From: Rubrivivax sp.
Lineage (GTDB): Bacteria; Pseudomonadota; Gammaproteobacteria; Burkholderiales; Burkholderiaceae_C
DNA length: 40,842 nucleotides
Assembly (NCBI GenBank): GCA_040007675.1
Contig: JBDTUO010000001.1
Span: 1 to 40,842 of the forward strand
Reading direction: 5' to 3'
The position numbers and the translations under genes were made by a program. Every line of letters begins with the position of its first letter. Position 1 is the first letter of the stretch. This document shows, one piece after another, positions 2,868 through 29,150 of this stretch. The notes beneath the pieces were generated by a model. It searched no databases. It was given only the letters and a program-made list of their open reading frames with translations, and had not been told where the DNA came from.

Positions 2868-2892
2868 CCTGCTGAAAGTGATTGCCCCGACC

Positions 2893-4902: not shown

Positions 4903-4938
4903 CGGTTCACCTTGTCCAACTGCAGAAGGAGACACCCC

Positions 4939-5964: not shown

Positions 5965-5974
5965 GGGTGCGGCC

Positions 5975-7761: not shown

Positions 7762-7767
7762 GCCGTC

Positions 7768-12517: not shown

Positions 12518-13993
12518 CTATTCGGATTGCGTCTTTGTTGCCAGCAATTCGTTGAATTTCTCCAGATCGTTGCGAAGCCCGGCATAGATCTGCGGCTTGT
12601 GCTTGCGCAGGTAGATGGCATAGACGATGCCGCCCACCAGCGCTGCCAGCAACAGCAGCGGCAGCAGATTCACCAGCAGCGCCTCCGAGCCCGCAATGAC
12701 GGAGAAGTTCAGGATCGCCATGACCGCGATGCCGAGCAGTCCCAGCGCACCGATGCCGGGGGCGACGAAGGTGCGCCACCACCGAGGGTCGCGGGTGCGG
12801 CGGAAGTGCACGACGATCGACAGCGCGGTCAGCAATTGCAGGACCAGGATGCACAGCGTGCCAAAGCCCAGCATGCCGGGCACGAGCGATGCGATCGGGT
12901 CCAGCCCCAGCACGGCGAAGACCCCTGCCACGCTCGCCGCGAACAGCGCCTGCACGATGGCCGCGGTTTGTGGAACCCCGTTCCCGGTCGTGCGCGCCAG
13001 GGCGAACGGCAGGATGCGCGCGCGGCCGAGCGAAAACAGGTAGCGGGTGGCCGAGTTGTGGAACGCGAGCATCGCGGCAAACAGGCTGACGAGCAGCAGG
13101 ATCATCATGAGGTCGGTCAGTGCGCTGCCCAGATAGGTGTTCGAGAGGCTGAAGATCAGGTCGCCGCTTTCCAGGTGCTCGAGGCCCACGTTCTGGGCCT
13201 GGGCGACGCCGGTGGCGCTGACGACGGCCCAGGTGGTCAGGCCGAGGATGAGTCCGATCACGCAGATGGACGCATAGGTGGCGCGCGGAATGGTCCGCAG
13301 CGGGTTCTTGGCCTCTTCACTGAAGAGCGACGTGGCCTCGAAGCCGAGGAAGCCGGTGGCGGCCAGCAGGAGTCCGATCCCGATCGAGCCCGAGAAGATG
13401 AACTCCGGTGCGAAGGCGTCGAGACTGAAGCCGTGCTTGGTGAAGACAGCGGCATCGAAGAGCAGCAGGATCAGGGTCTCGAGGATCAGCGAAGCGCCGA
13501 GCACCTTGGCGCTGAATCCGATGCCCTGCCTGGCCAGCACGAAGGAGGCGACGATCGAGATCAGGCCCCAAGCGTACCAGTGCAGATCGAATCCGGTGAG
13601 CTGCGCGACGACGGTCTGCGTGAAGAAGCCACTCGTGCCGATGGTGCCGGCGACGAAGAAGTTATAGCCCATGGTGGCGATGAAGCCGGCAACCAGCCCT
13701 CCGCTGCGGCCCAGGCCCTTGACTACGAAGGCGTAGAACCCGCCCGCATTCACCAACTGCCGTGACATCTGTGCGTAGCCGACGGCGAAGAACAGCAAGA
13801 TGATGGCAACGATGATGAACGACGCCGCCGCGCCTCCCCCGTTGCCCAGGGCGATAGCGAGTGACGCGACGACGACGATGCCCGTCAACGGGGCGACGGC
13901 GGCAAGAACGAGAAAGACGACGCCGGGCACACCGAGGGCATTCCTTTCCAGTTGACCGGCGGTGAAGTATCCGGGTCGATCCTCTGTGCTCAC
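12518..13993 (-). CDS. APC-family amino acid/amine permease
   Basis: 491 aa, about 12 hydrophobic segments; NAGGFYAFV, FLGFEATSLFSEEAKNP; AAAGGA RBS before the GTG start. Confidence 0.88.
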   Translation of the reverse strand: MSTEDRPGYFTAGQLERNALGVPGVVFLVLAAVAPLTGIVVVASLAIALGNGGGAAASFIIVAIILLFFAVGYAQMSRQLVNAGGFYAFVVKGLGRSGGLVAGFIATMGYNFFVAGTIGTSGFFTQTVVAQLTGFDLHWYAWGLISIVASFVLARQGIGFSAKVLGASLILETLILLLFDAAVFTKHGFSLDAFAPEFIFSGSIGIGLLLAATGFLGFEATSLFSEEAKNPLRTIPRATYASICVIGLILGLTTWAVVSATGVAQAQNVGLEHLESGDLIFSLSNTYLGSALTDLMMILLLVSLFAAMLAFHNSATRYLFSLGRARILPFALARTTGNGVPQTAAIVQALFAASVAGVFAVLGLDPIASLVPGMLGFGTLCILVLQLLTALSIVVHFRRTRDPRWWRTFVAPGIGALGLLGIAVMAILNFSVIAGSEALLVNLLPLLLLAALVGGIVYAIYLRKHKPQIYAGLRNDLEKFNELLATKTQSE

Positions 13994-14053: not shown

Positions 14054-14743
14054 TCAGCCGGTCCGCGGTGGGCCGGCCATGGATGCCTCGGCGGGGGGCA
14101 GACCGAGCAGTTGCAGCGCGTGGTGATACGAGGCCTGCGGCTGCACGACGTCGAAGTGCACGACCTGCATGCCGAAGCTTCGCGCGCCGTCGACGTTGCG
14201 CCGCTGGTCGTCGACGAAGACACAGTCGGCCGCAGCGATGCCGAGACCCTCGGTGATTGCCGCGTAGGCGCGCGGATCGGGTTTGAGAATGCCGGTGTAG
14301 GTGGCGTCGACGATCAGCTCGAACAGCGCCAGCAAGGGCAGTTCTTCGCGCATCGCGGCGCCGTAGAACATGTCGAGCTCGTTGGACAACAGGGCCACGC
14401 GCTTGCCGGCGGCCCGAGCGGCGTGGACCGCGTGCTCTGCCTGCGGGCGGATCATCGCCTGCACGTCGGCGCCGCGTGCGCGTCTGACGAAGGTCTCCAT
14501 CCGGTCCCAATCTTCGCCGAGCAGACAGCCGACTTCGTGGGTGCGTGCCATCCAGTAGTCGCGCTCGCTGATGCGGTCGGCCTGCATCTCGCGCCACAGC
14601 GGGTCGTGCGCAGGGTCGAACGGGCCCCGCCACGTCAGGGTGCCGGGCGCCAATCCGAGCGCACGCTCGGTCTGGGCATGCGTCTCGAACAGGGTGCGGG
14701 TGACGACACCGCCGAAGTCGAGCACCAGGGCCTGGGCGCTCAT
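14054..14743 (-). CDS. HAD-superfamily hydrolase (subfamily IA-like)
   Basis: LVLDFGGV (motif I), LLSN, KPDPRAY, CVFVDD. Confidence 0.85.
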   Translation of the reverse strand: MSAQALVLDFGGVVTRTLFETHAQTERALGLAPGTLTWRGPFDPAHDPLWREMQADRISERDYWMARTHEVGCLLGEDWDRMETFVRRARGADVQAMIRPQAEHAVHAARAAGKRVALLSNELDMFYGAAMREELPLLALFELIVDATYTGILKPDPRAYAAITEGLGIAAADCVFVDDQRRNVDGARSFGMQVVHFDVVQPQASYHHALQLLGLPPAEASMAGPPRTG

Positions 14744-14753
14744 CTCGGTGGAC

Positions 14754-16007
14754 TCACTGGAGCTCGGCCGCTTCGGGCGCGGCGATCAGACCCTCGGCCA
14801 CCCAGCGGTCGAACACCTGCAGCACCGCCGCGGCGAATGCCGCATCGTTGATGTGCGCGTCCAGCTCGATCAGTTGCGTGCCGGTGCCCACCGCAGTGCG
14901 CAGTTCGTCGACCAGCGCACCCAGGCCTTCGGGATCGTGCAGCGGCTGGCCAGCACGATCCCAGCCTTCGACGCCCTGCGTGGGCACCAGGAGCACGGTC
15001 GGTCCGGTCGCCTGGCTCAGACGCGCACCGATGGCACGGGCGACGCTGCGGCGCATCGGCGGGTCGATGCAGACCGAGGCGATGAGCCGGTTGTGGGTGT
15101 GCGCGGCGCGGCCCTGGAAGCGCTCCGGCAGCCCGGACCAGGCCGCGTAGTCGATCATGTCGGTGGCTCCCGGGGCCACGATTTGCGGCACGCCGGCGCG
15201 TCCGGCACCCAGAAGGCGGTCGGCGCCGGCGGTGACACAGGAGCCTCCGAGGTGGTTGACGAGTTCCTGCAGACACAGGTCCATCACGGCGACGAAGCGG
15301 CCTTGTGCCGCCAGCGTTTCGAAGGCGCGGCCGCCCATGCCGGTGGTGTGGAACACAGCGACCTCGAAACCGCGCCGCTCGAGTTCGGGCTTGAGCAGCT
15401 TCATGTAGCCGAGCACGCTCGATCCGAGCGAGGTCATGCCCACCATCGGACGCCCCGGGAGGGGCGCGATCACGCTGCGGCACGCACCGAGCACAGCACC
15501 GGCGGCCTGCGACAGCGCCGAGCGGCACAGGCTGTTCAAGCCATACAGGCCGCCGACCCACAGCACCATGATCAGATCGGGCGCGATGCGTTCGGAGGGC
15601 AGCAGATGCGAATATGCGATTGTCGACAGCACCACCTTCGGAAACCCCAGCGGCAGCGCGCTGGTGACATCGAGCGCGAGGTCGGTGCCCATCGTTCCGC
15701 CGAGCGCCAGCACGCCGGCGATGCGCCCCTGGCCCTGCAGCTTCGCGGCCAGCAGCGCGGCGCCGCAAGCCATCGTGCGCATCGCGCTGTTCTCGTCGCC
15801 AGACGCCGCGGCCTGCTCCAGCGTCATCCCGGCGGCGGCGGCAACCTCGGTGTTCGTGATGTCGGCGCGGCAGCCGCCGCGCCCGAGCACACCGACATCC
15901 ATCACCAGCGCATGCCCGCCGGCCTGCCCGATGCACCGGCTCAGGAAGGCGATCTCGTCACTCTTGGTGTCGACGGTGCCGATAAGCAGGATCGTCGGAT
16001 TTTCCAT
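14754..16007 (-). CDS. Tm-1-like ATP-binding domain protein (UPF0261 family)
   Basis: ILLIGTVDTKSDE, GGTMGT, LPLGFPKVVLST, GLNS, FHTTGMGGRAFE, PQIVAPGATDM, HIND. Confidence 0.85.
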   Translation of the reverse strand: MENPTILLIGTVDTKSDEIAFLSRCIGQAGGHALVMDVGVLGRGGCRADITNTEVAAAAGMTLEQAAASGDENSAMRTMACGAALLAAKLQGQGRIAGVLALGGTMGTDLALDVTSALPLGFPKVVLSTIAYSHLLPSERIAPDLIMVLWVGGLYGLNSLCRSALSQAAGAVLGACRSVIAPLPGRPMVGMTSLGSSVLGYMKLLKPELERRGFEVAVFHTTGMGGRAFETLAAQGRFVAVMDLCLQELVNHLGGSCVTAGADRLLGAGRAGVPQIVAPGATDMIDYAAWSGLPERFQGRAAHTHNRLIASVCIDPPMRRSVARAIGARLSQATGPTVLLVPTQGVEGWDRAGQPLHDPEGLGALVDELRTAVGTGTQLIELDAHINDAAFAAAVLQVFDRWVAEGLIAAPEAAELQ

Positions 16008-17413: not shown

Positions 17414-18856
17414 TCAGGCGGGCACGCCCACCGTCACGGTTTTGACTTCGGTGTAGTGCAGCAGGCCTTCGGCACCCATCTCCTGGCCGACGCCGCTCTC
17501 CTTCCAGCCGCCGAAGGGCAATTCGGGCTGCGACACGCCGAAAGTGTTGATGCCGACCATGCCGGCCTCGAGCTCCTCGCCCAGGCGATGCGCGGTCTGC
17601 AGGTCGCGCGTGAAGGCGTAGGCGCCCAGCGCATAGGGCAGCGCGTTGGCGCGCACGATGGCCTCGTCGAGGCTGTCGAAGGGTTCGATCACGGCGATCG
17701 GCCCGAAAGGTTCGCTGCGCTGCACCAGGCTGTCGGCGGGCGCGTCGGCGAGCACGGTGGGTTCGAAGAAGTAGCCGGGCCGATCGACGCGGTGGCCGCC
17801 GCACAGCAGCCGCGCGCCGCGGTCGACGGCGTCGTCGACAAAACGCTCCATCTCTTCAATGCGACGGCTGTGGATCAGCGGGCCCATCTCGGTCTGGGGA
17901 TCGAGCCCCGGCCCCAGGCGCAGCGCCTGCGCGCTGGCGCTGAACTGCGCCGCCCATGCCGCATACAGGCTGCGGTGCACGTAGAAGCGGATCGGCGAGG
18001 CACAGACCTGACCCGCGTTGCGGAACTTGGCTGCCAGCGCGTTCTTCAGCGCGAAGCCCGCGTCGGCATCGGCGCAGACGATCACCGGCGCGTGGCCGCC
18101 GAGCTCGCCGGTGAAGCGCTTGATCCGCTCCGCGCACATCTGACCGAGCTGCTTGCCGACTGCCACCGAGCCTGTGAATGAGGCCTTGCGGATCGCAGCG
18201 TGATCGATCAACGTCGCCGAGACCTGTTCAGGCACGCCGCAGACCATGTTCAGCGCCTCGGGCGTCACGCCGGCATCGAGAAAGGCGCGCACCACCAGCA
18301 TGCAGCTCGCCGGCGTTTCTTCGGCCGGTTTGATGACGACGCTGCAGCCCGCTGCCAGGGCACTGCCGAGCTTGCGTGACGGCAGGTTGACCGGGAAGTT
18401 CCAGGGCGTGAACGCGGCCACCGGGCCGATCGGCTGGCGAATCACGGCCTGCGACAGGATTCCCGGCACCCGCGGCGGCACCAGCCGGCCGTAGAGGCGT
18501 TTCGCCTCCTCGGCCTGGAAATCGATGATGTCGGCCGACAGCGTCACCTCGCGCAACGCCTCGGCCAGCGGCTTGCCCTGCTCGAGGGTCAGGACCTGCG
18601 CGATGGCCGGCGCACGCTCGCGCAGCAGCGCGGCGGCCTGGCGCACGATCAGATAACGCTCGTGCGCCGACTTCCGGCGCCAGATCACGAAGCCGCGCGC
18701 GGCAGCCTCGGCAGCCTCGTTCAGCTCCCGGGCGCCAGCCAGCGGAAGGGTTCCCAGCGGCGATGCGTCCGCCGGATTGACCACGCTGCATTCGCCCCCC
18801 GACGCGCGGCGCAGCCATTGGCCAGCGACATGAAGTGCGAGTTCGGGGTAGCCCAT
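17414..18856 (-). CDS. NAD(P)-dependent aldehyde dehydrogenase (SSADH/KGSADH-like)
   Basis: TPWNFP, KPAEETP, FTGS, ELGGHAP, NAGQVC, EPFGP, PFGGWKESG. Confidence 0.92.
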   Translation of the reverse strand: MGYPELALHVAGQWLRRASGGECSVVNPADASPLGTLPLAGARELNEAAEAAARGFVIWRRKSAHERYLIVRQAAALLRERAPAIAQVLTLEQGKPLAEALREVTLSADIIDFQAEEAKRLYGRLVPPRVPGILSQAVIRQPIGPVAAFTPWNFPVNLPSRKLGSALAAGCSVVIKPAEETPASCMLVVRAFLDAGVTPEALNMVCGVPEQVSATLIDHAAIRKASFTGSVAVGKQLGQMCAERIKRFTGELGGHAPVIVCADADAGFALKNALAAKFRNAGQVCASPIRFYVHRSLYAAWAAQFSASAQALRLGPGLDPQTEMGPLIHSRRIEEMERFVDDAVDRGARLLCGGHRVDRPGYFFEPTVLADAPADSLVQRSEPFGPIAVIEPFDSLDEAIVRANALPYALGAYAFTRDLQTAHRLGEELEAGMVGINTFGVSQPELPFGGWKESGVGQEMGAEGLLHYTEVKTVTVGVPA

Positions 18857-18875: not shown

Positions 18876-19886
18876 TCAGGGCTTGCTGTCGACCACGACG
18901 CCCTGGCGCGAGAACAGGACTTCGCTCCCGTCGGCGGCGCCGATGACCGCGGTCAGCGACAGGCGGTCGGCACGTGGTGAGGTCACGAAGTTCTTGCCGC
19001 CGTCACTGCTGCGCAACAGCAGGCCGTCGGCGCCCACCGCGATCAGATCCCGATCAACCTGGGCCATCGCGCTGATCGACGAGGTGCTTCCGGTGGCCAC
19101 GGCGCTCCAGCTGCGGCCGTCGTCGACGCTGCGAAACAGAGAGCCGCGCATCCCGGCTGCGAACAGGCTGCCGTCGGCGGTGGCGAGACCGGTCCACAAG
19201 GAGCCCTTGTAGCCGGTGGACAGGTAGACCCAGTTCTGGCCGAAATCGTCCGAGCGCAGCAGCTTGCCGCGTTCGGCGGCGGCATACAGGCGCCCCTTGC
19301 TGTCGGTGAACAGACCGTAGAGGTTCAGGTCGGCCTTGCGCGCGCCGTCCGGCGGCGGTGGCGAGACGGTCTGCCATTGGCGCCCGCCGTCCTCGGTGCG
19401 CAGCACCAGCGACCACAGGCCGACCGCCACCCCGCGCTGCGCGTCGAAGAAGTGCACCGCGAACAGCGGCCGGTCGGTCTCCACGTCGCTGCGCTGCACG
19501 GTCCAGGTCTCGCCGCCGTCTTCGCTGTGCAGGATCACGCCCCAATGGCCCACGGCCCAGCCTTGCCGGGCATCGACGAAGCTGACACCGGTGAGCGCAG
19601 CATCGACCGGCACCGTGCGCGCTTGACGAAAGGTCCTGCCGTTGTCGTCGGACAGCAGGACCACGCCGTGGTCGCCCACCGCGACGATGCGTGCGCCGGC
19701 ACGCGCAGACGCCAGCAGCATCGCGTGGCTGGCGTGGACGGTGCGCTGCGCGCCGACGAGGGTCAACGGCGCCGCGGCCGTGGCCTGGGCGAATGTCGGC
19801 TGCCCGCACAGCAGCGGCACCGCCAGCAGCGACCAAAGCCAGCGCGACGACCCGCAGCTCCTGGGTGAGGTGTGCCCCATCGTCAT
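18876..19886 (-). CDS. Secreted BNR/Asp-box beta-propeller protein (Ycf48-like)
   Basis: Signal peptide; repeated S/T-x-D-x-G-x-x-W/F Asp boxes (SDDNGRTF, SEDGGETW, TEDGGRQW, SDDFGQNW, SVDDGRSW). Confidence 0.85.
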   Translation of the reverse strand: MTMGHTSPRSCGSSRWLWSLLAVPLLCGQPTFAQATAAAPLTLVGAQRTVHASHAMLLASARAGARIVAVGDHGVVLLSDDNGRTFRQARTVPVDAALTGVSFVDARQGWAVGHWGVILHSEDGGETWTVQRSDVETDRPLFAVHFFDAQRGVAVGLWSLVLRTEDGGRQWQTVSPPPPDGARKADLNLYGLFTDSKGRLYAAAERGKLLRSDDFGQNWVYLSTGYKGSLWTGLATADGSLFAAGMRGSLFRSVDDGRSWSAVATGSTSSISAMAQVDRDLIAVGADGLLLRSSDGGKNFVTSPRADRLSLTAVIGAADGSEVLFSRQGVVVDSKP

Positions 19887-19889
19887 ACC

Positions 19890-22295
19890 TCAGTGCTGCA
19901 GCAGGCCAGGCGCACGCGCCGGTCGTCGGCGCGGGAACAGCCGCTCGAGCCAGACCGCAAACGCCGGCAGCACCGTCATCGCCATCACCATGTTGACCAT
20001 GAACATGAAGGCGAGCAGCTTGCCCATGTCGGCCTGGAACTTCAGCGCCGAGAAGGACCAGGTCGCGACGCCGATCGCGAGCGTGATGGCGGTGAAGATC
20101 GTCGCCGTGCCGACCTCGAGGATCGAGTGTTCGAGCGCCTTGACGATGTGCTGGCCATTGGCCAGGTGCAGCTGCAGGCGGTTGTAGATGTAGAAGGCGT
20201 AGTCGACGCCGATGCCCACCGACAGCACCATCACCGGCAGCGTCGCGACGGTCAGGCCGATCTGCAGCTCCTTCATGAACCAGTAGCCGACGAAGGTGCC
20301 GATGGTCAACGGCAGACAGCAGGCCAGCACCGCGCGCAGATCGCGGTAGACCAGCAGCACCAGCGCGGCAATCGCGGCGTAGACGTAGAGCAGCATCGGC
20401 AGCTCGCTGTGTTCGACCTCTTCGTCGATCGCCGCCAGCACGCCGGCATTGCCGGCCGCCAGGCGGATCTGAACGCCGGGGATCGGATGGGCTTCGCGAT
20501 AGGCCTTGACGGCGTCGATGACACCCTGGATCGTGGTCGCCTTGTGGTCGGTCAGGTACAGGTGCACGGCAGTCATGCTGCAGTCCTTGCGCATCGTGCC
20601 GGGCACGCGGCTGGTCTCGGTGGCCAGGCCGGCGTAGTTGGCGGGGTCGATCGGCACCACCGCCATCTTCGGGTTGCCTTCGTTGTAGCCCTCGTTGTAC
20701 TGGCGCAGCTGGCCGCTGAACGATGCGATCGACATCACGCCGGCCACCGGCTGCATGGCCCAGACGAAGCGGTCCTGCGCGATGCCGAGGGCGACGTTCT
20801 CGCAACTTTCGGGCGCAGTCTCGAAGACCACGCTCAACCAGTCCAGGCCGGTGTCGTAGTGGCTCGAGATCGACACCGCATCAAGATTGAAGCGGGCGTC
20901 GGCGCGCAGTTCCGGCGCACCGGGCTGCAGGGTGCCGATCACGCGGTCTCGGCTCTGCCACACGGCGGTGGCGAAGATCGCCGCGGTGATGCCGAGCACG
21001 AGCAGCGCCCTGCGCGGTTCGGCCAGGCGCGCCAGCGCACGCAACCAGCGGGCGCGCTGGTCGCGCATGAGCACGGCACGTTCGGCATAAGCCGCGCCGA
21101 AGCTGAAGTACGACGCCGCCAGCGGCAGCATCACGAGGTTGGTGACGATCTTGTAGGCCACCCCCAGCGAGGCCGTGATCGCCAGCTCACGCACCATCGG
21201 AATCGGGATCAGCAGCAGCGTGATGAAGGAGACGAAGGCCGTCACGAGGGCCAGGGCACCGGGGATCAGCAGGCCGCTGAAGCTGTCGCGGCAGGCGTCG
21301 AAGGTCGAGCGGCCCTGCGAGATCCGGCGCACGATGAAGTTGATCTGCTGCACGCCGTGCGAGACGCCGATCGCGAACACCAGGAAGGGCACCAGAACGG
21401 CCAGCGGGTCGAGGCCGAAGCCCATCACCCTGAGCGTGCCGAACTGCCAGATCAGGGAGGTCAGCGAGCAGCCGATCGTCAGCAGCGTGAAACGCAGCGA
21501 GTGGCAGTACCAGTACACCGCCGCGGCGGTCAACAGCAGCGCGAGGAGGCAGAACTCGAGCACCGCCGAAGCACCGTCGGCGATGTCGCCGATCTGCTTG
21601 GCAAAACCGATGATCTGGATCTCGTAGCTCGCATCCTCGAAGCGTTCGCGCAGCTGCTGCTCGAGCACGTGGTTGTACTCGACATAGTCGATGCGCACGC
21701 CGCCCGCATCGAACTCATTGAGCTCGGCCGTGATCATCGCGCTGCCCTGGTCGCGGGCCACCAGGGTGCCGACATAACCACCGAGCTTGGTCGTGCGGGC
21801 GATGCCCTCGATCGCCCGCGCATCAAGCTTGTCGGGCGTGATCGTGCCCGGGATGATCGGATCGGCGCGAAACCCCTCCTCGGTTATCTCGTTGACAAAC
21901 GCGTTGGGCGTCCACAGCGACTGCACGCTGCCGCGCGAGACATAGGGCAGGAACATCACCGCCTGCGTCACTTCGTACAGCCGCGTCAGGCCGGCCTGGC
22001 TCCAGATCGTGCCCTGGCGCGCGCGCACGACGACGGTCAGACGGTTGGCTCCGAGCAGGTCGTCGCGGTACTGCTTGAAGGTGCCGATGTACTCGTGGCC
22101 GATCGGCATCTGCTTTTCGAAGCCGGCCTCCATGCGCAACTGCAGTGCGAACCAGCCCATCACGGCGGTCAGCGCCGCGAGCATTACCAGGATCTGGGCG
22201 CGGTGGCCGAAGAGCAGATCCTCCAGGCGCTGCAGACCACGCAGCAGCGCGGAAGCGCTGGCCGGCACCGGCGCTGAATCACGCGCTTCGTTCAT
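19890..22295 (-). CDS. RND/MMPL-family inner-membrane transporter
   Basis: Two membrane halves with AIGVSHGVQ and GIGVDYAFY motifs and large periplasmic loops; start uncertain (ATG 22295 or 22370). Confidence 0.85.
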   Translation of the reverse strand: MNEARDSAPVPASASALLRGLQRLEDLLFGHRAQILVMLAALTAVMGWFALQLRMEAGFEKQMPIGHEYIGTFKQYRDDLLGANRLTVVVRARQGTIWSQAGLTRLYEVTQAVMFLPYVSRGSVQSLWTPNAFVNEITEEGFRADPIIPGTITPDKLDARAIEGIARTTKLGGYVGTLVARDQGSAMITAELNEFDAGGVRIDYVEYNHVLEQQLRERFEDASYEIQIIGFAKQIGDIADGASAVLEFCLLALLLTAAAVYWYCHSLRFTLLTIGCSLTSLIWQFGTLRVMGFGLDPLAVLVPFLVFAIGVSHGVQQINFIVRRISQGRSTFDACRDSFSGLLIPGALALVTAFVSFITLLLIPIPMVRELAITASLGVAYKIVTNLVMLPLAASYFSFGAAYAERAVLMRDQRARWLRALARLAEPRRALLVLGITAAIFATAVWQSRDRVIGTLQPGAPELRADARFNLDAVSISSHYDTGLDWLSVVFETAPESCENVALGIAQDRFVWAMQPVAGVMSIASFSGQLRQYNEGYNEGNPKMAVVPIDPANYAGLATETSRVPGTMRKDCSMTAVHLYLTDHKATTIQGVIDAVKAYREAHPIPGVQIRLAAGNAGVLAAIDEEVEHSELPMLLYVYAAIAALVLLVYRDLRAVLACCLPLTIGTFVGYWFMKELQIGLTVATLPVMVLSVGIGVDYAFYIYNRLQLHLANGQHIVKALEHSILEVGTATIFTAITLAIGVATWSFSALKFQADMGKLLAFMFMVNMVMAMTVLPAFAVWLERLFPRRRPARAPGLLQH

Positions 22296-22392
22296 CGATG
22301 TCGGCCGCGGCGCGGCGGCGTCAGGTTGCGGCTGCGCGGGTGGGGGCGGCATGCGCTGGCCGGACCGCATGCAGGCCCCACGGGCGCGGGCG

Positions 22393-24045
22393 TCAGAAGT
22401 TGCGCGACAGCACGGCGCCGAAGAAGGCACGGTCGCCGAGGGGCTGGTCGAGTGCCGAGCCGCCACCCCAGAACTTGGCGTAGTTGAGCGCGAACTGCCA
22501 AGTCGCCGGGTTGCGGATGAAGCTGACGGTCAGGTTGACTGACTTGGCGCCCTTCATGAACAGCCCCGACAGGTTGGGCGTGTAGCCCGAGAGGGCCTGG
22601 AAGTAGTAGATCTCGGGAATGACCTGCCAGCCCGGGATGACCGTGCCGTCGTAGACCCAGCTGACATCGAAGTTGATCCCCGCCGAGGTCTTGCTGCCCT
22701 TGGCCACCGGTGCGGCGGTCGGATCGGTCGCCTGGCCCCAGCCCCAGCCACCGGCGGTGATCAGATCGCCGCCGTAGTTCTTCTTGAGGTCCGGATAGCT
22801 GATCACCACGAGTTCGGACAGCACCGTCGCGGTGTCGGCGCCGAGCATCTTCAGGATGCCGCCGCCCGTGCTCGGGGTCAGGCTGAGCAGGCCGGTAAGG
22901 GCCCATTGCAGCCGCTTTTCGTCGACCCAGCAGTCACCGTTCTGCGAGCTGCAGCCGGTGGTCGCGGCATTCAGCGCGACGGCATCCTTCGGCCGGTACG
23001 ACAGCTCGGTGCCGATCGCCCAGTCGCCGAGCGGGAAATTGGCGCTGACGCCGAGCATCGTCCGATCCTCGGCGTAGGTCCAGCCGACCGCCCCGGTATT
23101 GTTGATATTGACGCTGAAGTTCGGCGTCTTGTCGTGGAAACTCATTGCGTACAGGCCGAGGTTGAGCTGGGTGCCCTGGGGCTGGTAGCGCAGGGCGACA
23201 CCCCACTGGCCGCCGTTGCGCGGCTCGACTTCGACGAGCCCGTAGGCGGCATGACCCTTGCCCAGCCCGTTGACCACCGACCAGTAGCTGCCGGTCGGCG
23301 GGAAGTAGCTGGCGTTCCAGTTCGTCTGCACATAGGCCTCGACGTTCAGGCCATGCCCGAGACCGCTTGCGATGCTGATCATCGGCGCCGGCAGGAACAC
23401 CTCCTTCAACTGCGTGCCCGGTTGCGACAGACGCATGATGTCCATCGCATTGGTGCTGTTGATACCGCCCGGCAGGAACAGGCTCTCGCCCCAGCTGATG
23501 ACCTGGTTGCCCACCCGCACGCGGGCCTGCTGGCCGCCGAGCGCGAAGCTCTTGCTGACCCAGAAGTCGAGCAGCCTGCCCTTGAAGCGCAGGGCTTCGC
23601 GCGCGTCGTCGGACAGGCCGTCGGCGGCCGGCGGCGGCGGCGCTGCGCTGGCGAACCCGGTGGTGCTCGTGGCGGCGAAATCGCGCACCCAGTTGACGCG
23701 GCCGAAGAAGGTGAAGTCGCTCGGCATCTTCAGCAGCAGCTCGTGGCTGCCCTTCAGATAACCCGTGAACAAATCGCCGCGGCCGTAGTTCAGGTTGCCC
23801 TGGTCGCCGAGCAGCGAGGTCGGCGCAAGGCAGCCGGCAACCGCGCCGCCCTTGTCGTCGACGGCGCCGTCGGTGATCAAGCTGCAGCTAGGCGAGTCGG
23901 CGCGCACCCCCAAACCCAGCGAGAGCGTCGAGTCGAAGTTGCCGCGCACGCTCTCGGTCTGGAACGTGAAGGCCTGCGCGCTGCCGAAGCAGGCCATGAG
24001 GGCGGCCGCCGCGGCCGGCTTGAGCAGGGCTCGTGCTGGGTTCAT
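22393..24045 (-). CDS. DUF1302-family outer-membrane protein (probable beta-barrel channel)
   Basis: GGAGA RBS, signal peptide AQA, DQGNLNY, RVGNQVISWGESLF, C-terminal DRAFFGAVLSRNF ending in Phe. Confidence 0.83.
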   Translation of the reverse strand: MNPARALLKPAAAAALMACFGSAQAFTFQTESVRGNFDSTLSLGLGVRADSPSCSLITDGAVDDKGGAVAGCLAPTSLLGDQGNLNYGRGDLFTGYLKGSHELLLKMPSDFTFFGRVNWVRDFAATSTTGFASAAPPPPAADGLSDDAREALRFKGRLLDFWVSKSFALGGQQARVRVGNQVISWGESLFLPGGINSTNAMDIMRLSQPGTQLKEVFLPAPMISIASGLGHGLNVEAYVQTNWNASYFPPTGSYWSVVNGLGKGHAAYGLVEVEPRNGGQWGVALRYQPQGTQLNLGLYAMSFHDKTPNFSVNINNTGAVGWTYAEDRTMLGVSANFPLGDWAIGTELSYRPKDAVALNAATTGCSSQNGDCWVDEKRLQWALTGLLSLTPSTGGGILKMLGADTATVLSELVVISYPDLKKNYGGDLITAGGWGWGQATDPTAAPVAKGSKTSAGINFDVSWVYDGTVIPGWQVIPEIYYFQALSGYTPNLSGLFMKGAKSVNLTVSFIRNPATWQFALNYAKFWGGGSALDQPLGDRAFFGAVLSRNF

Positions 24046-24085
24046 GGGACTGTCTCCGCTTGGGTTCTTGTGATCGACGGTTGAA

Positions 24086-25477
24086 TCAGCGGTCGCTGAT
24101 CGCACGCAGGTTGTCGGACGTGTAGAAGCTGGGCTTCATGCGCGGGTTGTCACCGGGTTCGGTGAGCCAGCGCACGTCGCTGCCGGTGCCGGCGGCGTGC
24201 ATGTCGAAGACGTAGCGGCCTTCGTTGAGGTTGTATTGCACGAAGGCCGAGACGTCGCAGGTGCCGGTCTCGTAGACCGGGATCAGGAAGCCCTCGCGCA
24301 CCTTGGCCAGCTTGCCCTGGGCGTCGTAGTCCTCGGCCAGCACCATGTTCCAGCTGTCCTCGTCGAGGTAGTAGGTGCGCTTGGGCGTGGTGTGGCGCAT
24401 GCCCGCCTTGACCGACGCCTCGATCACCCACACGCGGTGCAGTTCGTAGCGGCGCTGGCCCGGGTCGATGAAGTCGGGCTTGGCGATGTCCTCGAACTTG
24501 GCCTTGAAGTTGTAGGCGCCGAAGGCGTTGTAGGGCACGTACAGCTCCGTCTTGCCGACGAGCTTCCAGTCGAAGCGGTCGAGCGTGCCGTTGAAGACGA
24601 AGGGCTCGTCGAGCGTGTACTGGTTCTCCATGCCGATCTGCGGCGAGTCGTACGAGTACGTCGGCATGCGGCGCACGCGCCGCTGGCCCGGGAAGTAATA
24701 GAAGGTCTCGCTGCCGTCCTGGTCGAGGAAGTACGTGATCGAGAGCGCCTGACCGGCCAGCGCGGTGGGCGAGCTGTAGGCGAAGTAGGCGTAGTACTCG
24801 ACCTGCGGCAACTTGGACAGCAAGGTCGAACCCTTGGCGCCCCAGGGCATGTAGGCGGTGAATTCCTGGCCGGCACGAATCCACTCGGTGCTGCCCTTGC
24901 GTGGCGAGACCGAGGTCACGACGTTCTTGTAGTCGATGCCGACGCCGCGGTAGCGCATCTTCGCGTTCCACATCGCCTCGATACCGGCGGCGGGCATCGC
25001 AAACGGGATGCCGGGCACCGTCGCTTCCTTCAAGCCCCAGCCGTCGGCGGCCAGCTTCGCGGTGCTGACGCTCGCCTTGGTGTTGGCGGCGACGAAGTCG
25101 GGTGCGCCGCAGCTGCGCCGCGTCGGGTACACCTGCATGCTGTAGCCCTTGATCTGCTTGAGCATCGCGAGCTGGCCGGGCGACAGGCGCTCGGCGTACT
25201 TGTCCCCGTTAGCCGCATCGATGGTCAGTGTCGGCTTGTCGTCCTTGTGCTTGAAGTGCTCACCACGCAGCTTGCCGTACGACCAGCCCGTCTGCTGCAC
25301 CTCGTTGCCCGACCAGGCTGGAATGCTGCCGTCCTTGTTGCCGGCTTTCTCGGCGCCCAGCGGCGTCAGCTCCGCGCCGAGTCTGGAAGCATCGGCAGCG
25401 TGTGTGGCGGGGCTCGCGGCGACCATCGCCAGGATCAAGGTTGAACAGGCCAGGGCCAGGGGCTTGTGGTGGGTCAC
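24086..25477 (-). CDS. DUF1329-family periplasmic protein
   Basis: Signal peptide; LTPLGAEKAGNKDGSIPAW, YFPGQRRVRR, FNGTLDRFDWKLVGK, RYELHRVWV, YLDEDSW; GGAGA RBS. Confidence 0.87.
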   Translation of the reverse strand: MTHHKPLALACSTLILAMVAASPATHAADASRLGAELTPLGAEKAGNKDGSIPAWSGNEVQQTGWSYGKLRGEHFKHKDDKPTLTIDAANGDKYAERLSPGQLAMLKQIKGYSMQVYPTRRSCGAPDFVAANTKASVSTAKLAADGWGLKEATVPGIPFAMPAAGIEAMWNAKMRYRGVGIDYKNVVTSVSPRKGSTEWIRAGQEFTAYMPWGAKGSTLLSKLPQVEYYAYFAYSSPTALAGQALSITYFLDQDGSETFYYFPGQRRVRRMPTYSYDSPQIGMENQYTLDEPFVFNGTLDRFDWKLVGKTELYVPYNAFGAYNFKAKFEDIAKPDFIDPGQRRYELHRVWVIEASVKAGMRHTTPKRTYYLDEDSWNMVLAEDYDAQGKLAKVREGFLIPVYETGTCDVSAFVQYNLNEGRYVFDMHAAGTGSDVRWLTEPGDNPRMKPSFYTSDNLRAISDR

Positions 25478-25691: not shown

Positions 25692-25735
25692 GATTGCGCC
25701 AGCGGCCCCGGGGGGCCGCGCATGGGAGCCATCGC

Positions 25736-26914
25736 ATGGGTGCTCGCTTGTTCCACGGCGCGGCACATCAGGTCGCGCGCAGTCTGCTGGTCATCGGGGC
25801 CGTTGCGCTGACCTCGACAGCCCACGCCGTGTTGCCGCTCGACCAGTTGACGATGACCAAGCTGGCGCCGGTCGACTCGTACCGGCTGTACATCGGCGAC
25901 CCGGCGATGGGCCATCTTGTCGATGGCCGCACTCATGTGCTCGACGGTTCCCAGATGCGCTATCTCGGCCTGCTCGGCACCGGCTTTGCCGCGGCGACGG
26001 CGCTGTCGCCGGACCGGCACACGATCTACGTCGCCACCACCTACTACAGCCGGCTGCAGCGCGGCGTGCGCACCGACGTCGTCGAGGTCTACAGCGCCGA
26101 CGACCTGAGCTTCCAGTACGAAATCGAGATCCCCGCCAAGCGGGTGACCAGCTTGCCGATGCGCGCGCTGTCGGCCACCACGGCCGACGGCCGCTTCCTG
26201 CTGGTGCAGAACGCGACACCGGCGACCTCGGTCAGCGTCGTCGACCTGCAGACCCGGCGGGCCGTGGCCGAGGTGCCGGCGCCGGGCTGCTACGCCGTGA
26301 TCCCGTGGCCGAGCCAGCCGCGGCGCTTCTCATCGGTGTGCGGCGACGGCACCTTCGCGACCTTCGACCTCGACGACAAGGGCGCGCTCGCATCGAGCAG
26401 CGTCAGCAAGCCGTTCTTCGACCCCGACACGGATCCTGTCTTCATGCACTACGAGCTCGTCGGCGACGCACTGAGCTTCGTCTCCTACCACGGCAATGTC
26501 TACAGCCTCGAGCTGACGGGCGCGGCGCCGACGGCGAACCCGCCCTGGTCCATGCTCGATGGGGCTGCTCGCAAGCAGGGCTGGCGGCCGGGCGGTTATC
26601 AGCTGTTTGCCATCGAGCCGCGCAGTGGTCGACTCTATGTCGGCATGCACGACAAGGGCGCCGAGGGCACACACAAGAACCCAGCCAAGGAGATCTGGGT
26701 CGTCGACCTGAAGCGCCGCACCCGCATCGCGCGCCTGCCCGGCCAGATGGCGGTGTCGATGAACATCGCGCGCACCGCCAAGCCACGGCTGTTCGTGCTC
26801 AGCGGTGCGGACAACACCATCGTCTCCTTCGATCTGAGCGGACCGAAACCGCCGACCAAGCCGCTGGCGCGCTCCGAGCCGGTCGGCGATACGCCGGCCT
26901 TCGTGGGGATGTGA
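25736..26914 (+). CDS. mauB: TTQ amine dehydrogenase large subunit (AauB/MauB-like)
   Basis: GGGAG RBS, signal peptide; TTYYSRLQRGVRTDVVEVY, VQNATPATSVSVVD, WRPGGYQ, GTHKNPAKEIWV. Confidence 0.9.
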   Translation: MGARLFHGAAHQVARSLLVIGAVALTSTAHAVLPLDQLTMTKLAPVDSYRLYIGDPAMGHLVDGRTHVLDGSQMRYLGLLGTGFAAATALSPDRHTIYVATTYYSRLQRGVRTDVVEVYSADDLSFQYEIEIPAKRVTSLPMRALSATTADGRFLLVQNATPATSVSVVDLQTRRAVAEVPAPGCYAVIPWPSQPRRFSSVCGDGTFATFDLDDKGALASSSVSKPFFDPDTDPVFMHYELVGDALSFVSYHGNVYSLELTGAAPTANPPWSMLDGAARKQGWRPGGYQLFAIEPRSGRLYVGMHDKGAEGTHKNPAKEIWVVDLKRRTRIARLPGQMAVSMNIARTAKPRLFVLSGADNTIVSFDLSGPKPPTKPLARSEPVGDTPAFVGM

Positions 26915-27465
26915 TGAGCCTGCTGCCCGTCATCGATCCGGTCCTTGCCCACGCCGCGGCCGCGGGGCTCGGCGCCGTCCTGCTGCTCGGCGCGCTCGAG
27001 AAGCTGCGCGAACCCGAGGTGTTCCGCGACGCCGTCGACAACTATCGCCTGTTGCCTGCGCCATTGGTGCCCGTGCTCGCGCGCAGCCTGCCGTTGTTCG
27101 AGGGCCTGGCCGGCGCCTTGCTGCTGCCCGGCGCCACGCGTCCGCTCGGTGGGCTGCTGGCGCTGGCGCTGCTGCTGCTGGTCACCGCGGCGATCGGCAT
27201 CAACCTGCTGCGCGGCCGTGACCGCATCGATTGCGGCTGCGGCGGGGGTCTTCATACACCGCTGGGGGTCGGCCTGGTCGTGCGCAACGGCGTGCTGATG
27301 CTGCTCGCCCTGACCTCGTTCGCACCGCTGTCGGGGCGGCCGGTGGTCTGGCTCGATTTCGCCGCTGCGGGCTTCGCCACGCTGTTCGGCCTCGGCCTGT
27401 ACTACCTGGTGAATGCCATGTTGAGCCACCACGCGCACCTGCTCGAACTGAGGAACTCGCCATGA
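26914..27465 (+). CDS. mauE: Amine dehydrogenase maturation membrane protein MauE/AauE
   Basis: TGATG overlap; hydrophobic; NYRLLP, IDCGCGG, VVRN. Confidence 0.9.
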   Translation: MSLLPVIDPVLAHAAAAGLGAVLLLGALEKLREPEVFRDAVDNYRLLPAPLVPVLARSLPLFEGLAGALLLPGATRPLGGLLALALLLLVTAAIGINLLRGRDRIDCGCGGGLHTPLGVGLVVRNGVLMLLALTSFAPLSGRPVVWLDFAAAGFATLFGLGLYYLVNAMLSHHAHLLELRNSP

Positions 27466-28070
27466 ACGAAGCCCTGATCATTTCCAACGTGCTGCTGTGG
27501 GTGGCGGTGCTGGCTTTGCTGGTGGTGGTGATCGCCCTGTCGCGCCAGATCGGCATCCTCTACGAGCGCATTGCGCCGATGGGCGCGCTGATGATGGACA
27601 GCGGCCCCAAGGTCGGCGACGCGGCGCCGGTCTTTGTGCTCCCCACGCTCGACGGCAGCGAACTGCAGATCGGTGCGCCGTCAGCGCACAGCACGCTGCT
27701 GTTCTTCCTCTCGCCGACGTGCCCGGTGTGCAAGAAGCTGCTGCCGATCCTGAAGTCGGTGAAGAAGGCTGAGGGCGAGCGGCTTCAGCTCGTGCTCGCC
27801 TCTGACGGCGACGCCTCGGAGCACCGGGAATTCCGCCGCCGCGCCGAGCTCGGCGCTTTCCCGTACGTGCTGTCGACCGAACTGGGCATGCGGTTCCATG
27901 TCGGCAAGCTGCCCCATGCGGTGCTGATCGACGAGGCCGGGCGCGTGCGCGCCAAGGGCCTGGTCAATTCGCGTGAACAACTCGACAGCCTGTTCGCGGC
28001 GCGCGAACTCGGCGTCGCCTCTGTGCAGGACTACCTCGATTCCTCGCGTCTGGCCAAGGATCAGGCATGA
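27462..28070 (+). CDS. mauD: Thioredoxin-like maturation protein MauD/AauD
   Basis: RQIGILYERIAPMGAL, SPTCPVCKKL, KGLVNSREQLDSL. Confidence 0.92.
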   Translation: MNEALIISNVLLWVAVLALLVVVIALSRQIGILYERIAPMGALMMDSGPKVGDAAPVFVLPTLDGSELQIGAPSAHSTLLFFLSPTCPVCKKLLPILKSVKKAEGERLQLVLASDGDASEHREFRRRAELGAFPYVLSTELGMRFHVGKLPHAVLIDEAGRVRAKGLVNSREQLDSLFAARELGVASVQDYLDSSRLAKDQA

Positions 28071-28618
28071 AGCAGCTGTTCGACTTCCTCGACCGACTGA
28101 CCGAGCGTCGCGTGCGCGCGCTCGCCAGCAGCACCTCGCGCCGCAGTGCACTGGTCAAGGTCGGCAAGGTGATGGTGGCCTCGGCCTTCACGCTGCCGGT
28201 CCTGCCCTTCGACCGCAGCTCGCGGGCCCACGCGGCAGGTGCCCACGGCGGAGGCAAGAGCGGCAAGGCCGCACCCAAGGCCACCGATTGCGACTACTGG
28301 CGCTATTGCGCGGTCGATGGCTTCCTGTGCTCGTGCTGCGGCGGCAGCGAGACATCCTGCCCGCCCGGAACCAGCATTTCCAAGGTGTCCTGGATCGGCA
28401 CCTGTCACAACCCGGCCGATGGCAAGGACTACCTGGTGAGCTACAACGACTGTTGCGGCAAGACCAGTTGCGGCCGCTGCTTCTGCAACACCAACGACGG
28501 TGACCGTCCGGGTTATCGCTTCGGCGTGCACAACGACGTCAACTGGTGCATGGCCAACGACAGCGCGGTGTATCACTGCACGGTCTCGGTAATCATCGGT
28601 TACCCGGAAAAGTCATGA
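28067..28618 (+). CDS. mauA: TTQ amine dehydrogenase small subunit (AauA/MauA-like)
   Basis: Tat motif SRRSAL; Cys-rich CDYWRYCAVDGFLCSCCGG, SWIGTC and DVNWC (the two TTQ tryptophans), SYNDCC (catalytic Asp); closely resembles the Alcaligenes AADH small subunit as I recall it. Confidence 0.93.
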   Translation: MKQLFDFLDRLTERRVRALASSTSRRSALVKVGKVMVASAFTLPVLPFDRSSRAHAAGAHGGGKSGKAAPKATDCDYWRYCAVDGFLCSCCGGSETSCPPGTSISKVSWIGTCHNPADGKDYLVSYNDCCGKTSCGRCFCNTNDGDRPGYRFGVHNDVNWCMANDSAVYHCTVSVIIGYPEKS

Positions 28619-29058: not shown

Positions 29059-29150
29059 GCTCAGGCGACCGGCCCCGGCAGGCGGTGCCGGGCCAAGTGC
29101 AGTCGTTGCGGTTGTCATGGTCGAGCGACGCTCAACAGGACTCAGGGCTG

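Follow-up and report, generated by a model that had tools for sequence, protein, structure and literature searches.

The question raised by this locus is what a protein of the UPF0261 family, here called P0001, does between the genes of an aminotransferase and a HAD hydrolase (P0002) in an amine-catabolic gene cassette of a Rubrivivax sp.; the window referred to below is the whole stretch of 40,842 nucleotides that was analysed. The best explanation, to which we would give a probability of roughly 0.6, is that P0001 is a kinase for amines of the tyramine, dopamine or octopamine type, that a transaminase and an aldehyde dehydrogenase (ALDH) act next, and that P0002 dephosphorylates the product, which then enters the homoprotocatechuate route. 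The observed part of this explanation consists of the family, the fold, the conserved residues, the gene order and the co-occurrence of the genes.

The gene cassette and its distribution

The initial annotation had placed the UPF0261 gene between aminotransferase and HAD genes with gaps of 10-22 bp, and indeed the two gaps are 22 and 10 bp, respectively, with 19 bp between the ALDH and aminotransferase genes and 60 bp between those of the HAD protein and the APC permease (Table 1). A scan for promoters and terminators gave no more signals than shuffled sequence yields. In the divergent TTQ cluster the large subunit scores 291.7 bits against aromatic amine dehydrogenase (AADH) and 132.6 bits against MADH, and by these scores it is aromatic-amine-dehydrogenase-like.

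Table 1. Features of the window around the UPF0261 gene.
Feature	Position	Strand	Remarks
APC-family permease	12518..13993	-	downstream of HAD gene; predicted amine uptake
HAD-IA variant-3 hydrolase P0002	14054..14743	-	229 aa; motif I LDFGGV; predicted accessory phosphatase
UPF0261 / MarK-family protein P0001	14754..16007	-	417 aa; PRK02399.1-4 branch; predicted phenol/catechol O-kinase
Class-III omega-transaminase PRK07481	16030..17394	-	upstream of UPF0261 gene; K286, R417, branch-typical R86
Aldehyde dehydrogenase, SSADH/KGSADH-like	17414..18856	-	upstream; predicted aryl-acetaldehyde oxidation
Accessory module: DUF1329, DUF1302, RND/MMPL, YCF48-like genes	18876..25477	-	upstream, same gene run
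Divergent TTQ amine dehydrogenase cluster	25694..30660	+	large subunit, MauE, MauD, small subunit, cytochrome-like gene, MauM/N-like

Conservation was followed in the 80 closest GTDB loci (mostly from Burkholderiales), in 400 other genomes sampled across the phylum and in 241 genomes of one large alphaproteobacterial family (f51), and the kinase branch was found in 19 of the 400 and in 84 of the 241. Of the 80 loci 72 have an aminotransferase gene, 75 a HAD gene and 68 both of them, and 63 show the order aminotransferase, UPF0261, HAD; when the tally is confined to the 63 loci with flanks of sufficient length, it comes to 59, 60 and 52. The arrangement is far from chance; an ALDH match, of one of two different types, is found in 49 of the 80. 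APC permeases of two families occur in 21 and 7 loci, the DUF1329/DUF1302/RND-MMPL/YCF48-like module in 9-13 of 80 and a MauB match in 12 of 80. The earlier suggestion that P0001 is a metabolic enzyme which uses ATP and belongs to a cassette for amine catabolism is supported by this conservation alongside aminotransferase, ALDH and HAD genes. The absence of a TIM-barrel partner was also rightly remarked upon, since the partner domain (PF09370) has no match in the organism's own genome (84.4% complete) and is encoded near the branch in 0 of 103 branch loci, as opposed to 14 of 14 canonical loci.

The kinase has its constant partner in the transaminase, and the HAD protein is optional. The same omega-transaminase co-occurs with the kinase in all 19 kinase genomes of the phylum sample and in all 84 of f51, where it is encoded within 13 kb of the kinase in 65, and 19 of the 103 genomes with this transaminase family have no kinase. 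The HAD gene was found in only 19 of the 84 f51 kinase genomes, there mostly adjoining the transaminase gene, and the strict kinase-HAD pair assumed in the initial annotation is not supported; that it was not found in 65 of the 84, nor in 8 of the 19 kinase genomes of the phylum sample, also weakens the notion of an obligatory on-off cycle of phosphorylation.

As to the substrate class, the neighbouring genes suggest that the conserved gene set likely breaks down amines of the tyramine or dopamine type. The AADH-like amine dehydrogenase of the window points the same way. Tests for the homoprotocatechuate gene hpaE found it in 34 of 38 genomes with the kinase, in 5 of 19 with the transaminase only and in 1 of 20 with neither, and it is tracked more tightly by the kinase than by the transaminase. 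Furthermore, the annotated records of Rhizobium and Ruegeria have hpaB or hpaD/E/F beside the cassette, and the 103 branch loci hold HpaB in 5, HpaF in 8 and two HpaD types in 9 and 3, the HpaB loci pointing to tyramine where tyramine and dopamine are otherwise indistinguishable. In the Burkholderiales-dominated set of 80 a single locus (L007) has hpa ring genes next to the cassette, and in the organism's own genome (~84% complete) homologues of hpaD, hpaF and hpaH lie on contig C59 and no orthologues of hpaE and hpaB were found, the best matches being at 41% and 24%. It should also be mentioned that no ring-specific gene for indole or imidazole compounds (tryptamine, histamine) recurs in the 43 recurrent families or the 92 of 141 rarer neighbours that were scanned. 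To our knowledge the known bacterial routes for tyramine and dopamine do not need a kinase, and no phosphorylation step in the bacterial catabolism of these amines was found in the literature searched.

Family, fold and substrate pocket of P0001

P0001 matches PF06792 (149.7 bits) and PF23189 (218.3 bits) above the Pfam cut-offs and PRK02399.1-4 of NCBIfam with 579 bits (cut-off 556), and its best solved relative by sequence is MarK (185.8 bits), at an identity of just 31-34%. For the structure model (pLDDT 93.6) Foldseek returned MarK at rank 1 and nothing other than MarK or Tm-1 at ranks 1-10; as modelled, P0001 has the two-domain UPF0261/Tm-1/MarK fold (cf. 9MPY, 3WRW), and the comparison with Tm-1 suggested earlier confirms a common fold (TM about 0.7). 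In a quick tree of 70 of 139 UPF0261 sequences the P0001 branch is distinct and a MarK-type protein is found on a separate long branch, and no assigned function for the PRK02399.1-4 branch was found in the searchable literature.

The view that UPF0261 proteins have no assigned reaction is out of date, since MarK, a member of the family with a solved structure (PDB 9MPY), is a published ATP-to-ADP phenol kinase, and as such the family's one enzyme on record, with the one catalytic activity that has been recorded for it (PMC12624787). Its ATP- and phenol-binding residues, D14/T15/K16, G195, H219 and H304 (PMC12624787), have their counterparts in D13/T14/K15, G195, H220 and H305 of P0001, the first three being kept in 97 of 99 branch sequences (2 gaps) and the others in 99 of 99. 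By analogy with MarK, P0001 is likely an ATP-dependent phenol kinase, and of the activation, ring-opening or kinase activities initially offered it is the kinase that is predicted, the other two not being favoured.

A different chemistry might nonetheless be imagined, in which P0001 uses ATP to activate a cyclic by-product, such as an amine-aldehyde or amine-PLP condensate, or to open its ring, with the HAD protein clearing a phosphorylated intermediate. Amine condensation products do form, and the branch has many residues of its own, including Gly153 in 99 of 99 members where 39 of 39 other UPF0261 sequences have an Asp, a loss that could bear on catalysis; moreover, the ATP and phenol sites of MarK are some 25 Å apart (PMC12624787), so that the chemistry of the family is incompletely understood. 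We find this quite improbable, however, as six of six of the ATP/phenol residues named in MarK are kept, as phenol phosphorylation is the sole activity recorded for the family and as the loci share no recurring gene of the hydantoinase or lactamase type.

In MarK, I285 and H348 face the ring and the ketone of the substrate, and the enzyme favours phenols whose side chain is an aldehyde or a ketone (PMC12624787). These two residues are D286 and W349 in 99 of 99 branch sequences and map to the side-chain end of the pocket, where an acid and a Trp would suit an ammonium group; the pocket residues thus lean towards the amine itself, and not its transamination product, as the substrate of the kinase, and it is from them that we infer the order of the steps. 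The initial annotation had the order the other way, and the same class of enzyme with another substrate, trapping or detoxifying by phosphorylation a phenolic aldehyde or aryl-acetate that the transaminase, AADH or ALDH has made, would accord with the carbonyl preference of MarK, with the f51-type loci, in which the kinase gene shares one run with transporter and ALDH genes and the transaminase gene is divergent, and with the tighter link of the kinase to hpaE. Such a later step is nevertheless unlikely, since Trp in place of the carbonyl-binding H348 and the invariant Asp286 make the pocket a poor fit for a carboxylate, and since an ALDH is matched in fewer of the 80 loci, and in two types, than is the transaminase.

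The HAD protein, the transaminase and the proposed pathway

Motif I of P0002 has D9 as nucleophile and G11 at the position of the second Asp, and while the DFGGV motif pointed out initially is real, it is a trait of the subfamily, since Gly is found here in 81 of 81 orthologues. Nor does it appear to signal odd chemistry, because motifs II-IV are of the Mg-dependent phosphatase type: the motif I Asp (D9, 81/81), the motif II Ser (S120, 80/81), the motif III Lys (K154, 81/81) and the motif IV pair (D178-D179, 81/81) are all present, along with E122. P0002 scores 57.4 bits against TIGR01509 (above the cut-off of 29.4) and 71.8 bits against TIGR02247 (below the cut-off of 125.4), and its closest solved relatives are YihX and sEH by sequence and sEH by fold. 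We predict an accessory phosphatase. An L-2-haloacid dehalogenase was rejected on account of motif IV, which reads DDQ where 1QQ5 aligns SSN, the dehalogenase type that lacks the Mg-binding DD, and orthology to the NagD-type AcvF/HpeD was rejected on account of there being no blastp match to the AcvF-type protein (motif DMDGT) of locus L132.

The HAD domain of ACAD10, which also carries the first Asp alone in motif I, was described as having negligible phosphatase activity and as restraining its kinase (PMC11342911), whereas a later preprint reports it to be a Mg-dependent phosphatase that reverses the kinase reaction (bioRxiv 10.1101/2025.09.10.675409). On the former model the kinase could act as proposed with the HAD protein as a regulator restraining it, or the latter could be an independent enzyme that dephosphorylates imported O-phosphorylated amines before transamination; the HAD gene is indeed found directly beside the transaminase gene in 18 of 21 genomes of f51, in one case with clearly no kinase present, and genome G550 has the transaminase and a divergent HAD but no kinase. 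Both roles are very improbable in view of the conserved catalytic residues, the preprint on ACAD10 and the restriction of the HAD protein in the phylum sample to kinase genomes (11 of 11).

The window aminotransferase scores 708 bits against PRK07481 (cut-off 575), and its closest solved structures are 5LH9, 6S54 and 4A6R. K286, the PLP lysine, and R417, which we take to be the C-terminal Arg with which class-III omega-transaminases hold the carboxylate of the keto acid, are kept in 82 of 82 transaminases. R86, presumably at the active site, is found in 52 of 54 kinase-linked transaminases, and among 19 in genomes without a kinase there are 4 R and 2 K (113 of 125 copies were retrieved), but the Fisher P for this link is overstated, because loss of R86 maps mostly to one nested paralogue clade. 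Four kinase-linked transaminases lack R86 (L018, L025, L041 and L079), and related transaminases without a kinase adjoin phenylacetaldehyde-dehydrogenase-like genes (L185, L190). R86 was consequently not accepted as proof of a phosphate-binding transaminase and is retained as weak support.

An amino-alcohol-phosphate phospho-lyase paired with the kinase was also rejected, as the gene is PRK07481 and not of the PRK06148/06149 type; a PLP enzyme of that type together with an APH-family kinase does occur in 10-13 of the 103 loci, as an optional module of its own. An RNase Z-like hydrolase was considered as a stand-in for the HAD protein, since its gene lies close to that of the transaminase in 8 of the 80 kinase genomes searched (of 103), all eight without the HAD gene, but chance gives as much with P about 0.10.

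The strict link to a PLP enzyme might alternatively mean that kinase and HAD protein serve the upkeep of the cofactor, salvaging or clearing vitamin B6 forms for the transaminase, with the amine not a substrate at all. Omega-transaminases do lose PMP during turnover (PMC6813460), and Asp and Trp could also hold a pyridinium ring, but such a role predicts neither the association of the kinase with hpaE nor the genomes in which the same transaminase family occurs alone, and we regard it as hardly credible.

According to the preferred explanation P0001 would use ATP to phosphorylate the ring hydroxyl of the tyramine-, dopamine- or octopamine-type amine, the omega-transaminase and the aldehyde dehydrogenase would convert the phosphorylated amine to an aryl-acetate, and P0002 would then remove the phosphate and let the product pass into homoprotocatechuate ring cleavage. 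The phosphate would likely trap the amine inside the cell and, in catechols, likely protect the electron-rich ring against condensation with PLP or the aldehyde product; norlaudanosoline arises from dopamine and a transaminase with no synthase present (PMC12993796), and PLP and L-DOPA undergo cyclisation (PMC8003434). Temporary phosphorylation by a kinase and a HAD phosphatase has its precedent in the Hpe and Acv pathways, where AcvF was complemented by host phosphatases in one test (PMC9618137, bioRxiv 10.1101/2022.04.28.489975), and in genomes without this HAD protein another phosphatase may take over. More tentatively, and as a possibility about which we are doubtful, the phosphate may be a protecting group in a widespread undescribed route for catecholamines and phenolic amines, keeping the ring from cyclising onto PLP or the aldehyde during deamination by a co-adapted Arg86 transaminase, with the phosphatase freeing the catechol only after the acid stage.

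The P0001 branch is common in both genome samples despite the single enzyme on record for UPF0261. If the explanation is right, there is an unexpected phosphorylation step in the bacterial breakdown of tyramine, dopamine and octopamine and the Tm-1 fold gains its second class of substrates, which is relevant to what plant Tm-1-like proteins do in metabolism. A phenol- or catechol-protecting enzyme would also be available for transaminase cascades, in which self-condensation of dopamine is a known side reaction (PMC12993796). The protecting-group idea, if true, would furthermore make this the first member of the Tm-1/MarK family to act as an amine kinase, present in about a third of the sampled f51 genomes.

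Comparison with known systems

The nearest known system is MarK (Saro_1862 of Novosphingobium aromaticivorans, PDB 9MPY; PMC12624787) with AcvCDEF, which shares with P0001 the two-domain fold, the D-T-K motif and the G195/H219/H304 equivalents, as well as a stand-alone gene in an operon with a HAD-superfamily phosphatase and a setting in aromatic catabolism. The partners of P0001 are however an omega-transaminase and an ALDH, a biotin carboxylase being encoded in 0 of 103 branch loci, P0002 is of type IA variant 3 where AcvF is NagD-type, and the branch has Asp and Trp in place of I285 and H348 and lacks the Asp at 153. P0001 was rejected as the MarK orthologue of an acetovanillone pathway on the grounds of these two replacements and of acvCDEF being found in 0 of 103 branch loci; AcvE and AcvF had no match in the organism's own genome (84.4% complete), and a true acv arrangement is seen at locus L132. 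With Tm-1 (PDB 3WRW-3WRY; PMC5028733) P0001 has the fold and an ATP-contacting Lys in common, and canonical UPF0261 copies pair with the TIM-barrel protein, whose gene adjoins 33 of 35 of them as against 0 of 19 copies of the P0001 branch.

HpeHI/HpeD and AcvAB/AcvF follow the same logic of kinase, middle step and HAD phosphatase, but their kinase is PEP-synthase-like with two subunits, their phosphatase has NagD homology (~30-32 kDa), their substrates are ketones and the middle step is a carboxylation (PMC9618137, bioRxiv 10.1101/2022.04.28.489975). The HAD domain of ACAD10 resembles P0002 in its single motif I Asp and its coupling to a kinase, although ACAD10, the sEH phosphatase domain and E. 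coli YihX are only ~20% identical to P0002 and have different substrates, and P0002 is set apart from them by a cap with invariant residues of its own and by the invariant E122 after motif II. Bacterial tyramine and dopamine catabolism proceeds by way of an amine oxidase, AADH or transaminase, followed by an ALDH and the Hpa pathway. The window shares with it the AADH-like cluster, the transaminase, the ALDH, the permease and the link to hpa genes, and differs from it in the predicted phosphorylation step.

The locus and its UPF0261 protein

The initial annotation described the locus correctly, since the order aminotransferase, UPF0261, HAD and the intervening gaps of 22 and 10 bp are confirmed; the ALDH and aminotransferase genes are separated by 19 bp and the HAD and permease genes by 60 bp.

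Features of the window around the cassette
Feature	Position	Strand	Remark
CoA-transferase, acyl-CoA ligase, 3HCDH/ECH fusion, TRAP transporter, fused indolepyruvate ferredoxin oxidoreductase, NnrS	103-12477	+	
APC permease	12518-13993	-	
HAD gene, P0002	14054-14743	-	229 aa
UPF0261 gene, P0001	14754-16007	-	417 aa
Class-III aminotransferase	16030-17394	-	
ALDH	17414-18856	-	
DUF1329, DUF1302, RND/MMPL, YCF48-like genes (four-gene module)	18876-25477	-	same strand run as cassette
TTQ amine dehydrogenase cluster	25694-30660	+	divergent from cassette
HipA-type toxin gene	31235-32494	+	just past the amine dehydrogenase cluster (region 30943-32494)

By score, the TTQ large subunit is closer to aromatic amine dehydrogenase (AADH; 291.7 bits) than to methylamine dehydrogenase (132.6 bits). 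Its cluster also holds a cytochrome-like gene and MauM/MauN (NapG/NapH-like) genes, and among the ORFs scanned there is no MauG-type gene. The four-gene module recurs with the cassette in 9-13 of the 80 closest loci, often adjoining AADH genes, and a short ORF upstream of the HipA-type gene resembles its antitoxin. The plus-strand genes before the permease are retained next to the cassette in L002 and L003 alone, its two closest loci, and therefore probably belong to a separate pathway.

UPF0261 had been regarded as lacking an assigned reaction, a view that no longer holds, as MarK of this family is a published ADP-forming kinase that phosphorylates acetovanillone and similar phenols at their phenolic oxygen, the MarK gene being the first of an operon with biotin carboxylase and phosphatase genes (PMC12624787, accessible text). 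MarK of Novosphingobium aromaticivorans (PDB 9MPY) is also the best solved relative of P0001 (E 1.3e-53), and the proposed fold comparison with Tm-1, carried out with an AlphaFold model (pLDDT 93.6), ranks MarK first and Tm-1 next. The same text gives D14/T15/K16 as the presumed ATP site of MarK, G195, H219 and H304 as phenol contacts, H348 as ketone contact and F283/I285 as hydrophobic face, for which alignment gives D13/T14/K15, G195, H220, H305, W349 and M284/D286 in P0001. When 99 sequences of its branch (PRK02399.1-4, at least 45% identical to P0001) are compared with 39 other UPF0261 sequences, D13/T14/K15, G195, H220 and H305 are conserved in 97-99 of the 99, D286 and W349 are branch-specific and present in all 99, and position 153 is Gly in 99/99 versus Asp in 39/39. 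The branch forms a single group (SH-aLRT 100, quick tree of 70 sequences), and the MarK-type protein of locus L132 sits on a separate long branch with 34% identity. Since the MarK residues are kept but the branch is separate, P0001 likely works like MarK while not being its orthologue; ATP-dependent activation or ring opening, which had also been considered, appears improbable next to these retained residues. L132 (G352:C1:883000-896000) is a full MarK-type locus with UPF0261, a small carrier-like gene, biotin carboxylase, carboxyltransferase and a NagD-type HAD.

The absence of a TIM-barrel partner, already pointed out for this locus and in line with PF09370 not being found in its own genome (84.4% complete), is a trait of the whole branch. 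The usual pairing is described in the accessible part of PMC5028733. In a phylum sample of 401 genomes, 48 of them with detected PF06792, PF09370 lies within 3 kb of 33/35 top-scoring canonical copies versus 0/19 branch copies, a count leaving out the MarK-type copy and low-scoring divergent copies, and a real TIM-barrel protein as query matched 14/14 canonical versus 0/103 branch loci. Many canonical copies (L087, L093, L108 and others) are part of open frames some 740-820 aa long, and as their UPF0261 part begins about 350-400 residues into the frame, an N-terminal fusion may be present. A further, divergent UPF0261 branch (L135-L137, 26-29% identity) is found at the end of ABC-transporter operons, in genomes where no TIM-barrel gene was found.

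Transaminase and HAD as partners

Among the 80 closest GTDB loci, mostly from Burkholderiales, 72 have the transaminase, 75 the HAD and 63 the order AT>UPF>HAD (rearranged in L062, L063, L068, L070 and L075). Of the other genomes in the phylum sample, 24 contain the PRK07481 transaminase, covering 19/19 with the kinase branch, and 11 the HAD, all 11 with the kinase; at E 1e-30 the HAD was not found in 8 kinase genomes. In f51, a sampled alphaproteobacterial family (241 genomes; its resemblance to named loci of Ruegeria and Pseudosulfitobacter marks it as Roseobacter-like), the kinase occurs in 84 genomes and the transaminase in 103, including 84/84 kinase genomes and within 13 kb of the kinase in 65, whereas the HAD is found in 19/84 kinase genomes and 2/19 transaminase-only genomes, directly adjoining the transaminase in 18 of these 21. 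Kinase and transaminase are therefore the fixed pair and the HAD is accessory, although the sampled genomes are kin and the counts thus not independent. Of the neighbourhood link proposed initially, the aminotransferase part is steady and the HAD part is not constant.

In G550 (L228, G550:C11:470001-479344; 99% complete) a transaminase with R86 is accompanied by a divergent HAD, and neither UPF0261 nor hpaE was matched, which may be read as a decayed cassette or as a HAD role without the kinase. An RNase Z-like metallo-hydrolase, possibly a substitute phosphatase or an aryl-sulfatase, lies near the transaminase in eight HAD-less kinase genomes (G454, G170, G584, G552, G452, G437, G510, G491; P about 0.10, not significant), and in G454 (G454:C20:4880-8301) between kinase and transaminase.

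The transaminase is closest to 5LH9 (517 bits) and 6S54 (506 bits) among solved structures, and K286 and R417 are present in 82/82 copies. R86 is found in 77/82 copies from kinase genomes and 0/4 unlinked copies, the position being Asp in 5LH9 and Pro in 6S54; the accessible texts of PMC6813460 and PMC12226076 do not place it. Among 113 of the 125 transaminase copies in f51, R86 occurs in 52/54 kinase-linked copies, 16/40 unlinked copies in kinase genomes and 4/19 copies in genomes without the kinase (plus two with K). Because most of the loss falls in a single nested clade, and Arg is also missing from four copies linked to the kinase, R86 is only weakly suggested as a phosphate-binding site. 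Members of this R86-less paralogue clade (L180, L182, L230-L238, L240 and others) are nearly always distant from the kinase, in unrelated surroundings.

In P0002, a HAD-IA variant-3 hydrolase, D9, G11, E122, K154 and D178-D179 are invariant in 81/81 orthologues and S120 is found in 80, and E122 is a candidate substitute acid/base. Its closest solved relatives are YihX, which presumably likewise lacks the second Asp, and the sEH phosphatase domain. A haloacid dehalogenase was rejected, 1QQ5 having SSN at the DDQ of P0002. The accessible text on YihX in PMC4251788 does not give the motif. The ACAD10 HAD domain has, as P0002, the first Asp alone; one paper measured negligible phosphatase activity on one substrate and put forward a regulatory role (PMC11342911, in part), and a later preprint describes a Mg-dependent phosphatase reversing the linked kinase (10.1101/2025.09.10.675409, in part). 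That P0002 is a regulator, or an enzyme independent of the kinase, is quite improbable.

Substrate class and proposed route

In annotated Rhizobium and Ruegeria records, hpaB/C, hpaF, hpaE, hpaD and hpaR of the homoprotocatechuate (Hpa) route adjoin the cassette, and of the 103 branch loci, 5 carry HpaB, 8 carry HpaF, 9 carry one HpaD type and 3 carry another. In f51, HpaE (TIGR02299) is found in 34/38 kinase genomes (38 of the 84 being tested) versus 5/19 transaminase-only genomes and 1/20 with neither. On C59 of the own genome there are homologues of hpaD, hpaF and hpaH, and on C197 there is PobA; a close HpaE or HpaB was not found in this 84.4% complete assembly. Against the Hpa link, however, hpa genes adjoin the cassette in just 1/80 close loci (L007).

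Other neighbours in the 80 loci are an AADH cluster (12), an EutR-like regulator (34), amidases and a deacetylase-like gene (5-7), and P450, glutamine-synthetase-like and amidotransferase genes (9-13), the last set lying upstream, sometimes with ferredoxin (L016, L019, L022, L045, L053, L055, L073, L116, L129), and presumably resembling gamma-glutamylation routes for amines. Sixteen loci (L004-L014, L027, L031, L056, L071, L152) have, after the HAD, another class-III transaminase (PRK07046) accompanied by one or two SDR genes, a set that could handle beta-hydroxy amines. An APH kinase paired with a PLP enzyme of the PRK06148 type, which we take to be a phospho-lyase pair, occurs in 10-13/103 loci, and a group II decarboxylase, presumably an aromatic amino acid decarboxylase, in 2. 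These optional feeder genes fit modified aryl-ethylamines as substrates. Kinase-less relatives of the transaminase adjoin phenylacetaldehyde-dehydrogenase-like genes (L185, L190), which fits a non-hydroxylated amine for which a phenol kinase is unneeded. In L241 (G464:C7:95000-105000), the transaminase, with no kinase, lies beside what we take from sequence to be sulfatase-, RNase Z-, decarboxylase- and phenylalanine-hydroxylase-like genes.

We consider it reasonably probable (about 60%), by analogy with MarK, that P0001 is a kinase for phenolic amines of the tyramine/dopamine type, tyramine and dopamine not being separable here. The permease would import the amine, P0001 would O-phosphorylate it, the transaminase would then deaminate the phospho-amine, the ALDH would oxidise the product, and the HAD or a host phosphatase would remove the phosphate before entry into the Hpa route. 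A kinase acting on a later substrate than the amine is unlikely. A chemical motive for a protecting phosphate is documented, since dopamine with a transaminase gives norlaudanosoline without a synthase (PMC12993796, in part) and PLP cyclises with L-DOPA (PMC8003434, in part); a strict protecting-group role is nevertheless only about half as probable as the kinase assignment, and for tyramine, trapping or detoxification as offered for the Hpe pathway would serve. That kinase and HAD instead serve B6 upkeep is very improbable.

Novelty and comparison with known systems

In titles and abstract openings, mostly outside subscription journals, catalysis by UPF0261 is reported for MarK only, and in similar coverage nothing was found on "Tm-1-like ATP-binding" proteins. 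Searches on tyramine, aminotransferase and homoprotocatechuate in Ruegeria pomeroyi gave no relevant literature, and those on a kinase with a transaminase in dopamine or tyramine breakdown nothing on topic among the matches listed. The branch of P0001 is real, conserved and uncharacterised; what is new is the hpaE contrast, the optional HAD that goes with the transaminase, the signatures D286/W349/G153 and R86, and the case for a protecting group, while the enzyme class and the temporary-phosphate logic already have precedent. HpeD and AcvF are NagD-type HADs stripping a phenol phosphate (PMC9618137, 10.1101/2022.04.28.489975, both in part), and P0002, having no BLAST match to the AcvF-type HAD of L132, is not their orthologue. 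The simplest reading is that the kinase-phosphatase logic of Hpe/Acv would here be carried by another HAD subfamily, with P0002 as the predicted phosphatase.
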